Assembly: GCA_964013405.1 (NCBI GenBank)
Contig: CAXGWI010000012.1
Span: forward strand, 1-45,161
Reading direction: 5' to 3'
DNA: 45,161 bases
Origin: an uncultured Myxococcales bacterium
GTDB taxonomy: Bacteria > Myxococcota > UBA4151
The notes under the pieces: model-generated
Databases searched by the model: none
What the model saw: only the letters and a program-made list of their open reading frames with translations
Told to the model about the DNA's origin: nothing
Shown: positions 2,159 through 7,505 of the stretch, piece after piece
How the letters are laid out: each line of letters opens with the position of its first letter
Position numbering within the stretch: the first letter of the stretch is position 1
Made by a program: the position numbers and the translations under genes

Positions 2159-2250
2159 CGCGCGAGCGCGCGCATTATGCGCGCACGCATTAAGTCCTTG
2201 ACGATGGCCGGCCGAATGCGCTTAAGAGCATATCCTTTTAAGGAATTAAG
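2159..2250. promoter_or_regulatory. mrp/gyrA divergent control region with palindromic alternating purine-pyrimidine tract, TTGACG -35-like box and four TTAAG
   Basis: CGCGCGAGCGCGCGCATTATGCGCGCACGCAT at 2159-2190, TTGACG at 2198-2203, TTAAG at 2190, 2222, 2238 and 2246. Confidence 0.55.
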
Positions 2251-2253
2251 CGA

Positions 2254-4917
2254 ATGAGCGACGATACCCAGCCGCCGGATCACCCCGACGACGAGAGCCC
2301 AGAACTGCCAGCGATCCCGGAGCAGCAGATTGCGAAGCGCATCTCCCTCGTGACCATCGAGGATGAGATGAAGAAGAGCTACCTTGAGTACTCTATGAGC
2401 GTGATCGTTGGTCGGGCGCTCCCGGACATCCGTGATGGGCTCAAGCCGGTGCACCGTCGGGTGCTCTTTGCTCAACACGAGCTGTCCAACACTTGGAGCC
2501 GGCCCTTCAAAAAGTCAGCTCGCATCGTCGGTGATGTGATCGGTAAGTATCACCCCCACGGCGACCAGTCGGTCTACGATGCGCTCGTGCGCATGGCTCA
2601 GCCCTTCTCCATGCGCTACCAGCTCGTCGACGGCCAAGGGAACTTTGGTAGCGTCGACGGCGACAGCGCCGCCGCCATGCGATACACCGAAGTGCGGATG
2701 AAGAAGCTCACCAATATGCTTCTCGCCGACATCGAGAAAGAAACCGTCGATTTTGGTACGAACTACGACGGTACCCTGGACGAGCCTCTCGTCTTTCCTG
2801 CCCGATTCCCGAACCTGTTGGTCAACGGCTCGGAGGGGATTGCGGTGGGTATGGCCACCCGTATTCCACCCCACAACCTGACCGAGGTGGTCACCGCCAC
2901 GCTCCATCGTATCGACCATCCTGACTGTCCCACCGAGGAATTGATTGCCCACGTTCCGGCGCCGGACTTCCCGACGGGGGGGATTCTCTGCAGTGCGAGC
3001 GGCGCGCAGGAGGCTTATCGGACCGGTCGGGGAATTATTCGGGTTCGTGCAAAGACCCATTTTGAAGAGATGGGCAATGATCGTTGGCGGATCGTTACCA
3101 CCGAGTTGCCTTTCCAGGTCAACAAGGCGCGACTGCTCGAGAAGATCGCAGAGTTGGTTCGTGACAAGAAGCTCGAGGGGATTTCGGACCTTCGGGACGA
3201 GAGTGACCGCCGTGGCATGCGCATGGTCGTCGAGCTAAAGCGTGACTCCATCAAGGAAGTGGTGCTGAACAAGCTGTTCAAGCAGACGGCCATGCAGACC
3301 ACCTTCGGTATGATCTTGCTGGGGATTCACGACAACCGACCGAAGATTTGTACCCTGGCGGACATGCTGGATGCGTTCATCGCCCATCGTCGGGACGTGG
3401 TCAGTCGACGCTGCCGCTATGAACTCAGGAAGGCTCGGGAGCGAGAGCATATCCTTGAGGGCTTTGTGATCGCCCTCGATAACCTCGACGAAGTCATCAA
3501 GTTGATTCGGGCCAGTCGGGACGGTGAGGAGGCCAGCGCTGGCCTGCAGTCGACCTTTGGGCTGACCGAGCTGCAAGCGAAGGCCATCCTGGATATGCGT
3601 TTGCAGCGTCTGACGGGCCTGGAGCGCGAGAAGATCCTCAACGAACTTGAGGACATCCGTGCGACCATCGCTCGCTTGGTTCATATCCTCAGCGATGTGA
3701 GCGAACTGCTTAACGTGATTAAGGGCGAGCTCGAAGATGTTCGCAGTGAGTTTGGCGATGAGCGTCGGACCGAGATTGCCGAGATCAGCGCCGACTTCGA
3801 TGAAGAAGATCTGATCCCCAATGCCCCCATGGTCGTGACCGTGACGGAGCAGGGTTATGTGAAGCGGACCCACCTCGATACCTACCGGACTCAGCGCCGA
3901 GGTGGTCGGGGCAAGAGAGGGATGGCGACCAAAGATGAAGATGCCGTGGTCGACCTCTTCGTGGCGAAGAGTCACACCATGTTGCTGGTCTTCACCGACC
4001 GGGGGGTCTGCTACCAACTGAAGGTTCATCGCCTGCCTGAGTTGGGTGCCAACGCCCGCGGCCGGCCGGTGGTCAATCTCCTTGAGCACCTGCAAAAGGA
4101 TGAGAATATCTGCGCCATCTTGCCGGTGCCCGAGTTTGCAGAAGGTCAGTTTGTTGTGACGGCAACGAAGAATGGTCAGATCAAGAAGACAGACTTGATG
4201 GCCTACAGTCGCCGTCGAGCCACCGGCTTGATCGCGGTGGATATCGTCGAGGGCGATGAACTTCGCTTCGTGAAGATCACCAATGGTGCGGGACAGTTGA
4301 TGTTGGCCACCGCCAGCGGCATGAGCATTCGATTTGAAGAGAGTCAGGTTCGACCCATGGGTCGGGGCACTCGCGGGGTGCGCGGTATTCGGCTTGACGA
4401 AGGCGATGAGGTGGTCGGCATGGTCGCCTTGGCCGAGGATATCGACCCAGAAGAAGATCTGCTCACCATCTGCGCCAAGGGCTATGGCAAGCGCACAGAT
4501 CTGGAGCAGTACCGCCTACAAAACCGTGGGGGTCGAGGCATCATCACCATTCAAACCTCCAAGCGTAATGGCAAGGTGGTGGGCATTCTCCTGGCGCGAG
4601 ACGGCCGGGAGTTGATGATGGTGACCTCCGGTGGCGTGCTGATCCGGACCCGTATGGAGCAAGTGAGTCGGATTGGGCGCAACACGCAAGGCGTTCGCCT
4701 CATCGATCTCGATAAAGGCGCAAAGGTGCGCAAAGCCGCCAGCATCCAAGATTTCGGCGACGATGAGGATGAGGAGAGCGGCGAGAGCGAAGTGGATGGG
4801 GATGCTGCGGAGATGCCGGCCAATGATGGCTCCCAGGCACCTGTCGAGGCAGCTTCCGACGATGGCGAGGACACAGAAGTGCCTGAGGCATCAGCGCCGG
4901 AAGAGGACGACAGCTAG
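2254..4917 (+). CDS. gyrA: DNA gyrase subunit A
   Basis: [22 protein letters not shown] (catalytic Tyr), GyrA-box QRRGGRG (3892-3912), beta-pinwheel repeats and acidic tail. The GyrA-box distinguishes it from ParC. Confidence 0.98.
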
Positions 4918-4929
4918 CCAAGCGAAGGC

Positions 4930-4970
4930 AAACGATAAAGGGGAGGCATTGCGCCTCCCCTTTGTTGTTT
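4930..4970. terminator. Bidirectional intrinsic terminator between convergent gyrA and gyrB
   Basis: AAACGATAAAGGGGAGGC-ATTGC-GCCTCCCCTTTGTTGTTT: 11-bp perfect core, extendable to 18 bp with two G-U pairs, A-rich on the left and T-rich on the right. Confidence 0.88.
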
Positions 4971-4989
4971 TGAATGGATGAGGTCGAGC

Positions 4990-7449
4990 CTAGAAATCCA
5001 GGTTGTCGACTTCGAGGGCATTGGACTCGATGAACAAGCGTCGAGGCTCAACTTCGTCGCCCATCAAACGCTCGAAGACATCGTTGGCCGCCTCTGCATC
5101 GGCGATCTGGATCTTGATCAGGCTGCGATTTTCCGGGTCCATCGTGGTTTCCCAGAGTTGATCCGGGTTCATCTCACCAAGACCCTTGTAACGCTGCAAG
5201 CTGATGCCCTTACGTGCGTTTTCAAGGAGGTGGGCCAATGCTTGGATACCCGATTCAAATTCCATGGCGTCACCCTTGCCGTTTTCAAGGCGTGCGGCCG
5301 GCGTGCAGTGGTTGATGCTGGACCAGAGGCGACCCGCTTCCAGCCAAACCGACTCGTGGCTTAGATGATGGTCGAGCAGGGTGTCCACTTGGGCCCCATT
5401 GTGGCGGGTGGTTACCCGCAAGCGGGTTCGACCTTCCGGATCCTCTTCGAGGAAGGTTTCTACGGGGAGGACTTCAGGGGCTAAGACTTCGATCAGCCCA
5501 GGAACTTGAGCCTGGATGATATCGAGTTGCTCCTCGTTATCGAGGATGGCCGGCTCGCCGGCGCCACAGCGGAGTAAAGCCTCGGCCACCCGGCCATCAT
5601 GGCGGCGGTCGAGACGCTCAATTTGTTGCCGAAAGCCTGCATAGGCTCGATTGGCGCCCTTCAGGCTTTGGTCAATTAAGGCTTCAGTGCCCTCGATATG
5701 CAGGGTGTAGCCTTCGCAGCCCATGGTGGTGAGGTAGTCTTCCAGCGCCGCTTCATCCCGAAGGTAGCGACCCTTCTTGCCTTTGGATACCTTGTAGAGA
5801 GGCGGCTCGGCCAGGAACAGGTGCCCATCTTCGATAATGGTGCGCATCTTCCGGTAAAAGAAGGTGAGCAGGAGGGTCGAGATATGGGCGCCGTCGACGT
5901 CGGCGTCGGTCATGATGATGATACGGTGGTAGCGCAGCTTGTTGATATCGAACTCATCGCTGCCAATACCCGTGCCGAGTGCGGTGATCAGGGTGATGAT
6001 TTCCTGATTTGCCAGGACCTTGTCGATCCGAGCTTTTTCTACGTTCAGGATCTTACCGCGCAGCGGTAGAATGGCCTGGTTCTTACGGTCTCGACCGCTC
6101 TTTGCGGAACCGCCGGCCGAATCACCCTCCACGAGGAAAAGTTCGCAGAGCCGGGGATCTTTTTCCTGACAATCAGCCAGTTTGCCGGGCAGCGCAGAAC
6201 TCTCCAAGGCCCCTTTACGGCGGGTGAGTTCACGGGCCCGGCGAGCGGCTTCTCGGGCCCGGCTGGCATCGATCGCCTTGGAGACCACCTGGCGAGCGAC
6301 TCTGGGGTTCTCAGCGAAGTAGTCGTTGAGAGCCTGACCAAACATGCTCTCGACAGCACTCTTCGCATCGCTGCTCACCAGCTTGGCCTTGGTTTGCGAA
6401 CTGAATTTGGGATCGGGCATCTTCACGCTGACGACCGCCACAATGCCCTCCCGGACATCTTCACCGCTCAGATCGTTCTTGCCCGATTTCGAGCCTAGAC
6501 CCGCGTCGCTCACGTAGCGGTTCACGCTACGGGTAAGGGCAGCACGAAATCCAGCCAAGTGGGTTCCACCATCGGCATTCGCGATGTTGTTGGTGAAACA
6601 GTAGATGTTCTCTTGATAGGCAGTGGACCATTGCAGCGCGATCTCTACGTTGATGGGCGCATCGCTGCCTTTGACCTGCTGCTCGCCTTCCACGTAGATC
6701 GGATCCTCGTGGAGCGTGTCCTTGTTGGCATTGAGGTGCTGGACGTATTCGACGATGCCGCCCTCATAGTGGAAGACCTCTTTGCGGTCCTGCCGCTTAT
6801 CTTCGAGGGTGATATGGGCCCCCCGGTTTAGGAAGGCCTGCTCCCGCAGTCGTCCCGCAAGAATCTCAAAGCGGAAACGGGTGTCGCTAAAGATAGCATG
6901 GTCTGGCCAGAAGGTGATCTCAGTGCCTGTTTGGCCTGGATCGCAGTCGTCAACTTTCACAAGGCGCTCGACCGCATCGCCCCGCTCGAAGGTCATCTCG
7001 TGGACGCCACCATCCCGCCAGACCCTCAGATCGAGCTTTTTGGACAGTGCGTTGACCACGGAAACACCCACACCGTGCAGACCACCGGAGACCTTATAGC
7101 TGTTTTGATCGAACTTACCGCCGGCGTGCAGCACGGTCATGATGACCTCAGCTGCGCTGACCCCCTTTTCGTGCATGTCGACTGGGATGCCGCGACCATC
7201 GTCCCGAATCGAGCAACTCCCATCGGTGTGCAGTGTGACCGAGACCGTGGTGGCATAGCCAGCAAGGCATTCGTCGACCGAGTTGTCGACGACCTCGAAA
7301 ACCATATGGTGGAGACCGGAGCCATCGTCGGTGTCGCCGATATACATGCCGGGACGCTTGCGGACCGCTTCAAGGCCTTCGAGGACCTTGATGGACTCAG
7401 CGTCGTATTCAGGGGCGGGAAAGGGTAGGTCCTGGGGGGCTTCGCTCAC
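4990..7449 (-). CDS. gyrB: DNA gyrase subunit B
   Basis: [61 protein letters not shown]. 819 aa with a long TOPRIM insert. GTG start behind GAGGAA. Confidence 0.98.
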
Positions 7450-7473
7450 GGTGTTTCCTCAATGCAGCGCCAC

Positions 7474-7505
7474 CCCTTAACGCGCGCGCATGCGCACGTA
7501 AAGGG
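7474..7505. promoter_or_regulatory. Imperfect inverted repeat containing a perfect 21-bp alternating purine-pyrimidine tract upstream of gyrB
   Basis: CCCTTAACGCGCGC-GCAT-GCGCACGTAAAGGG (12/14 arm match). ACGCGCGCGCATGCGCACGTA at 7480-7500 alternates R/Y without a break. Confidence 0.6.

Follow-up and report, generated by a model that had tools for sequence, protein, structure and literature searches.

Z-DNA-prone alternating tracts at the predicted gyrA and gyrB promoters of a Myxococcota family: a candidate supercoiling sensor

We analysed a 45,161-nucleotide contig (CAXGWI010000012.1; hereafter, the window) from the 3.9-Mb assembly of a marine bacterium of the phylum Myxococcota. The two gyrase genes, gyrA and gyrB, are convergent neighbours here (2254–7449), as they are in G001, G002, G003 and G005 of the same family, and each is preceded by a CG-rich tract of alternating purines and pyrimidines. 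The original prediction, made from the window's sequence, was that negative supercoiling drives both tracts out of the B form and silences both genes together. In E. coli, relaxation reportedly stimulates gyrA and gyrB transcription (Menzel and Gellert). We found that the tracts are a real, conserved, gene-specific and recurrent feature, and they offer a concrete candidate mechanism by which a gyrase promoter could sense supercoiling.

Results

Both tracts proved to lie exactly where they had first been noted (Table 1). They occupy different parts of their promoters: the gyrB tract fills the spacer of a predicted promoter with the geometry TTTACR-17-TA, whereas the gyrA tract lies upstream of the −35 box, ending 7 bp before it, between the predicted back-to-back promoters of gyrA and an mrp-like gene. 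We predicted the −35 and −10 boxes from conservation within the family and from the genome-wide enrichment of TTGAC-17-TA, which occurred at 37 sites in non-coding DNA versus 7–20 at other spacings. The −10 boxes at these sites ended mostly in G (in T at 4 of the 37). CarD-dependent alphaproteobacterial promoters have a −10 box of similar type, and a CarD-sized protein was present in all five family genomes searched. A sigma-70 consensus scan of the window detected neither the gyrA nor the gyrB promoter, consistent with −10 boxes that lack the last T.

A DNA contig from a public sequencing run, which may be the source sample, spans positions 7361–7684 with zero mismatches. One RNA contig reaches no further than 7464, which leaves about 3 bp to the gyrB transcription start predicted near 7467, and the DNA contig continues beyond this point; the RNA contig comes from one study and we did not use it as evidence. 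The exact coincidence of the gyrB tract with the spacer would also suit B-form mechanics, in which the CG spacer or upstream tract tunes twist and flexibility and so makes polymerase binding or melting responsive to supercoiling while the DNA stays in the B form. The mycobacterial topoI promoter is a known case in which spacer geometry confers such sensitivity (PMC4770202).

Table 1. Positions of the gyrase genes, tracts, predicted promoter boxes and neighbouring features in the window
Feature	Position	Strand	Basis or remark
gyrB tract	7480..7500	none	21-bp perfect purine-pyrimidine alternation; fills 17-bp spacer (7480–7496) and part of −35
gyrB predicted −35, TTTACG	7497..7502	−	TTTACR in 6/6 family genomes
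gyrB predicted −10, TAAGGG	7474..7479	−	only TA kept; TA exactly 17 bp past TTTACR in 6/6 family genomes
gyrA tract	2159..2190	none	two CG-rich alternating runs in opposite phase (2159–2174, 2176–2190)
gyrA predicted −35, TTGACG	2198..2203	+	CTTGAC in 6/6 family genomes; TTGAC-17-TA is the enriched genome geometry
gyrA candidate −10, TAAGAG (uncertain)	2223..2228	+	inferred from family alignment
gyrA	2254..4917	+	TIGR01063, 1140 bits vs cut-off 877
gyrB	4990..7449	−	TIGR01059, 969 bits vs cut-off 882
Hairpin between convergent gyrA and gyrB, likely terminator	4937..4971	none	11-bp GC stem, T-rich tail; seen in sequence
mrp/apbC-like gene, divergent from gyrA	985..2091	−	MrpORP/ApbC matches below cut-off
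ribA, same strand as gyrB and directly upstream of it	7527..8120	−	neighbour kept in family

The gyrB tract is the longest of the 138 alternating runs of at least 12 bp in the assembly; by expectation, the whole genome would hold about 0.06 runs of its length, and two upstream windows of 100 bp about 3e-6. The gyrA tract ranked 1 of 431 windows by alternation density and 8 of 22 by Z score. CGCG is under-represented in this genome (observed/expected 0.54), so the tracts run against composition. Such depletion is expected of a restriction target, and would fit a cytosine-methylation switch acting on the clustered CGCG/GCGC sites. However, we found a C5 methyltransferase in none of the six family genomes and none in 16 of the 26 tract-bearing genomes, the search covering the C5 type only, and conservation together with enrichment at gyrA excludes chance as the source of a neutral sequence; we regard either explanation as very improbable. 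The genome's rank-2 Z site, which served as a control, lies before a gene that we take, from its motifs, to be peptidyl-prolyl isomerase (PPIase)-like (NCBIfam gave no match at 1e-20), and it was already lost in the congeneric G001. A broader set of Z-regulated genes in this genome was considered and rejected: the other top sites precede unrelated genes, and the single site tested was not conserved.

We modelled the B-Z transition with a simplified SIBZ-style calculation of Z formation, using the energies in Table 1 of PMC3024258. Treated as single sites, the gyrB and gyrA tracts had midpoints at superhelical densities (sigma) of −0.0387 and −0.0433, each absorbing about 4 helical turns; a two-run model placed them at about −0.037 and −0.045. 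None of 1500 random 250-nt windows reached the gyrB threshold and 0.4% reached −0.045. The tracts ranked 1 (gyrB) and 8 (gyrA) genome-wide at sigma −0.05, and 1 and 31 at −0.06, so that the genome-wide ranking suggested with the original prediction gave them top places, as did run length for gyrB and alternation density for gyrA. Both are CG-rich alternations of at least 12 bp that, in the model, need only moderate negative sigma for their transition and precede competing sites, as expected of a Z-DNA element. For comparison, free supercoiling in E. coli is roughly −0.025 to −0.035.

Both tracts were retained in all six genomes of this family, at gyrA and gyrB alike, and at gyrA the CG tract ended 6–7 bp before TTGAC in every one. 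All six gyrB tracts consisted of 6 CG and 3 CA/TG units, in three letter arrangements with an identical predicted threshold, and the tract was the longest CG-type run in each of G001–G005. Differences among the gyrB tracts comprised 6 transitions and 0 transversions. At fourfold-degenerate sites about 41% of changes were transitions, a share at which the chance of an all-transition outcome is about 0.005, with two genera only behind the comparison; between these genera the tract flanks could not be aligned and fourfold sites were largely saturated. Alignment of the relatives thus bore out the expectation that alternation and predicted Z energy, rather than exact letters, would be conserved.

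Other parts of the original prediction fared less well. The core ending in TTAAG that gyrA and gyrB were said to share occurred in this genome only: ATGCGC..TTAAG-type strings were present at 8 places and TTAAG was not kept in relatives. The suggested alternative, a common repressor site, found no counterpart in a specific sequence conserved at both promoters across relatives, and the palindromes showed no conserved inverted repeat beyond what alternation itself gives. The non-conserved core and palindromes weaken both the repressor and the cruciform ideas. A protein reader in a wider sense (a repressor, a nucleoid protein or an unknown Z-binder) that co-regulates gyrA and gyrB through the tracts seems to us quite unlikely. 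The similar sequence at the two promoters speaks for such a reader, and a protein that recognises degenerate CGCG-type sequence, or one specific for Z-DNA, is conceivable; against it stand the loss of the proposed core and the drift of letters, length and distance in the second phylum described below. A search for Zalpha domains gave no match in five family genomes, with a control that was equally silent.

For a cruciform or RNA hairpin switch one could cite the 7–8 bp inverted repeats in 3 of the 6 gyrA tracts, and the folding of the window's own tracts, better than 98.5% of purine/pyrimidine-preserving shuffles for gyrA and about 97% for gyrB. Yet hairpin strength exceeded that of alternation-preserving shuffles only in the window's genus, the inverted repeats were not kept in the other genus, and 17 of 19 single-run tracts folded no better than such shuffles. 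The arms are also short and GC-rich, and Rfam covariance models gave 0 matches at E ≤ 0.1 across positions 1900–8300. This explanation has, in our estimate, very little chance of being correct.

We then considered other lineages. A 596-Gb scan for a −35 box, an alternating spacer and TA, with the window's own genome outside its coverage, returned 13 matches: five gyrB promoters of this family, one gyrA promoter in another phylum (L182) and seven others. The record for L186 is titled Candidatus Hydrogenedens, probably wrongly, since the gyrB locus found there is that of this family. Fully alternating spacers also occur in near-consensus sigma-70 promoters of phages, Clostridia and one member of the Chloroflexota, before unrelated genes (L174, L175, L178, L181, L183, L188–L192); at L183 a putative MntP-like gene is preceded by two such promoters, identical to each other and spaced 65 bp apart. 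Among 251 Myxococcota genomes, the pattern of a −35 box and alternating spacer was present in 15, at five family gyrB promoters and 11 non-gyrase loci. A viral scan gave 7 matches, none at a topoisomerase gene within the 300-bp flanks.

The L182 lineage, our second lineage, was placed by search near Planctomycetota/Verrucomicrobiota and is presumably Kiritimatiellae-like. A tract of at least 16 bp stood beside an extended −10 box at gyrA in 9 of its 47 assessable loci (49 examined, 2 too short). In a promoter-anchored search of 81 L182 relatives, 10 of the 32 tract-bearing TGnTATAAT promoters drive gyrA (9 of 31 without the index case), while such promoters numbered 208–603 per genome in total (five genomes counted). 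The gyrA tracts were longer and CG-richer than the other 22 (70% vs 49% CG units), units and kin being non-independent in this comparison. On a quick GyrA tree, from which 10 loci were excluded for an unmatched anchor motif and 1 as too short, the tracts were scattered, requiring 8 changes, at least 4 of them forced. A phylum-wide sample of the second phylum gave a tract in 5 of 70 gyrA loci examined (150 with a match), 3 of them new. Seven genomes that we take to be Akkermansia carried, in 7 of 7 cases, a 17–23 bp tract about 14 bp upstream of the −35 box of gyrBA; the other 23 of the 30 gyrB loci compared had no tract.

Some promoters in these genomes showed further peculiarities. At L354 (G274:C71), L356 (G279:C117) and L286 (G258:C57), a tract is common to back-to-back promoters or two tracts stand 70 bp apart. 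Relatives of G258 have hundreds of exact TGnTATAAT promoters per genome, often with the start codon 7–10 nt downstream, and this short distance suggests that their mRNAs, including that of gyrA, may be leaderless.

The wider survey bears on B-form mechanics. The position of the element varies: it may sit in the spacer, 2–14 bp before an extended −10 box, or upstream of the −35 box at a distance of either 4–7 bp or about 14 bp; its length ranges from 16 to 30 bp and TA units are avoided, which follows Z energy rather than spacer geometry. We consider an explanation without a Z flip unlikely, if still worth attention.

We also examined the topoisomerase repertoire. TopA scored above the cut-off in 228 of 251 genomes of the phylum (G169 counted once), and the 23 without it comprised this family (4 of 4), family f5 (17 of 17) and two others. 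The sole type IA topoisomerase match in the window's genome was topoisomerase (Topo) III-like, and TopA proteins of relatives matched only this gene, at about 25% identity. Relatives have the gene order dprA-topA or topA-trmFO; in the window's genome a gap of 29 bp, within a single contig and without topA, separates dprA from trmFO. Hence topA, once proposed as a possible third tract carrier, dropped out, as it was not found in this family. The Topo III-like gene has no alternating tract upstream; the genomes G001 (93% complete) and G005 (59% complete) yielded no such gene. Topo IV genes (parC/parE) were not found in the family, where the search gave a single GyrA/ParC-family gene only, and a search for Topo IB found none. 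All four TopA-less genomes tested outside this family had a second GyrA/ParC gene, so that the absence of both relaxing enzymes sets this family apart among the genomes tested. A bacterium with gyrase and Topo III only is notable by itself; the loci noted for this set are G000:C41:16976-19115 and G000:C218. In the second phylum, 13 genomes had no TopA above the cut-off (the G398, G435, G392, G347, G444, G467 and G416 group).

Discussion

We think it on balance probable that the tracts act as a threshold sensor in which a B-to-Z flip near sigma −0.04 lowers gyrase transcription. An excess of negative supercoiling would turn the gyrB spacer left-handed. Its −35 and −10 boxes would then no longer be in register, and a B-Z junction would fall on each of them. 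At gyrA, the flip would place a B-Z junction 7 bp from the −35 box and drain about 4 turns of local supercoiling, reducing the supply for promoter melting; divergent mrp transcription may add negative supercoils at this tract. Relaxation would restore B-DNA, and gyrase transcription would resume. Read-through from ribA would have to cross the gyrB tract, and stalling of polymerase at Z-DNA could cut read-through into gyrB. Since the only enzyme found that could counteract gyrase is of the Topo III type, lowering the gyrase supply would be a main brake in this family.

The Z flip might instead serve as an activator or torsional buffer. The Halobacterium bop promoter is reportedly stimulated by supercoiling and non-B DNA, and at gyrA the tract stands clear of the core boxes. 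Buffering is, moreover, a stated hypothesis for bacterial Z-DNA in a 2026 review (PMC13463272). Against this, a Z-form spacer should misalign −35 and −10, relaxation generally induces gyrase genes (PMC4770202), and activation would amount to positive feedback in a cell without TopA. The probability that we would give to such a role is low, if anything a shade below that of a protein reader.

Returning to the off switch, a wider claim is possible: that a protein-free Z-DNA switch at gyrase promoters has evolved repeatedly and independently in prokaryotes, and that in this family, which lacks TopA and Topo IV, it covers both subunit promoters with a constant, selected threshold and substitutes for topoisomerase I. 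We put this forward tentatively, as a reading that could well prove wrong.

Several results weigh against the proposed switch. The model includes Z formation only, leaving out melting, competition from cruciforms and Z-Z junctions; in it, free supercoiling of −0.05 or greater magnitude would leave the tracts permanently flipped, and at sigma −0.07 the tracts fell to ranks 12 (gyrB) and 138 (gyrA). The six family genomes represent two genera, so their agreement amounts to about two independent observations, and the candidate gyrA spacer differs between them, at 19 bp in the window's genus vs 16 bp in the other. Seven of the eight matches outside the family in the 596-Gb scan were promoter-like alternating spacers at unrelated genes. 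A tract is absent from the majority of gyrase promoters. In the second lineage, 38 of the 47 gyrA loci had no tract, nor did any gyrB locus. A tract was likewise present in 0 of 77 metagenomic gyrB loci among the matches listed, which included no family member, and in none of the 30 Chloroflexota gyrA loci examined (107 genomes with a match, a tally to which alone G522 was assigned), and none of at least 16 bp occurred in 39 gyrA and 29 gyrB loci of other Myxococcota. Loss of TopA as a general explanation for the tract was rejected, being neither necessary nor sufficient: of the 13 genomes in the second phylum with a tract at gyrA, 12 possess TopA, and family f5 (8 gyrA and 8 gyrB loci examined) and six other genomes lack both TopA and tract.

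Among known systems, Yang et al. (1996) reportedly described a non-B alternating purine-pyrimidine 'RY box' in the Halobacterium bop promoter, whose activity is stimulated by supercoiling. An alternating tract abutting the core promoter, a mark of the bop-type element, is also what we found here at the predicted promoters, and bop resembles the proposed gyrase switch in that a non-B structure links a natural prokaryotic promoter with supercoiling. It differs in being archaeal, in serving a gene other than a topoisomerase gene, and in the reported stimulation, with no feedback loop. Relaxation-stimulated transcription of gyrase genes in mycobacteria and E. coli has been explained by spacer length, discriminator or B-form DNA shape, as far as the accessible text of PMC4770202 goes. 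The likeness would lie in the homeostatic logic, with gyrase transcription falling at higher negative supercoiling and promoter DNA as the sensor; the known cases covered by that text are B-form, whereas the sensor proposed here is a B-to-Z switch. At engineered (CG)n inserts, E. coli RNA polymerase stalls on reaching the B-Z junction (PMC2425487), so Z-DNA can block bacterial transcription, a point relevant to read-through from ribA. Those inserts are artificial, longer and act on elongation, whereas the gyrase tracts are natural, conserved and located at predicted initiation sites.

In E. coli, the regions preceding operons are depleted of Z-prone sites (PMC10783518), a trend that retention of the tracts opposes. 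A term search of the accessible text of a tree-of-life Z-DNA survey (PMC12776410) gave no mention of gyrase, and the literature covered, which excluded most subscription papers and all supplements, contained no description of Z-prone tracts at the promoters of gyrase genes. Whether Z-DNA has a regulatory role in bacteria is an old open question, and direct in vivo evidence is still limited according to the 2026 review (PMC13463272). As objects for testing this, the gyrase promoters are short, natural and conserved, have a predicted threshold and come with matched controls; they also illustrate how a bacterium might operate gyrase without Topo I or Topo IV.

Additional observations

The gyrA product contains a motif that we take to be the GyrA box. 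The divergent mrp-gyrA arrangement is also present in relatives. Convergent transcription of gyrA and gyrB would accumulate positive supercoils between the two genes; the hairpin that lies there was absent from the list given by a terminator scan of the window. Elsewhere in the window, at 23287–24708, we found a below-cut-off match to an UshA-like (seleno)protein whose C-terminal part is cytochrome c-like.

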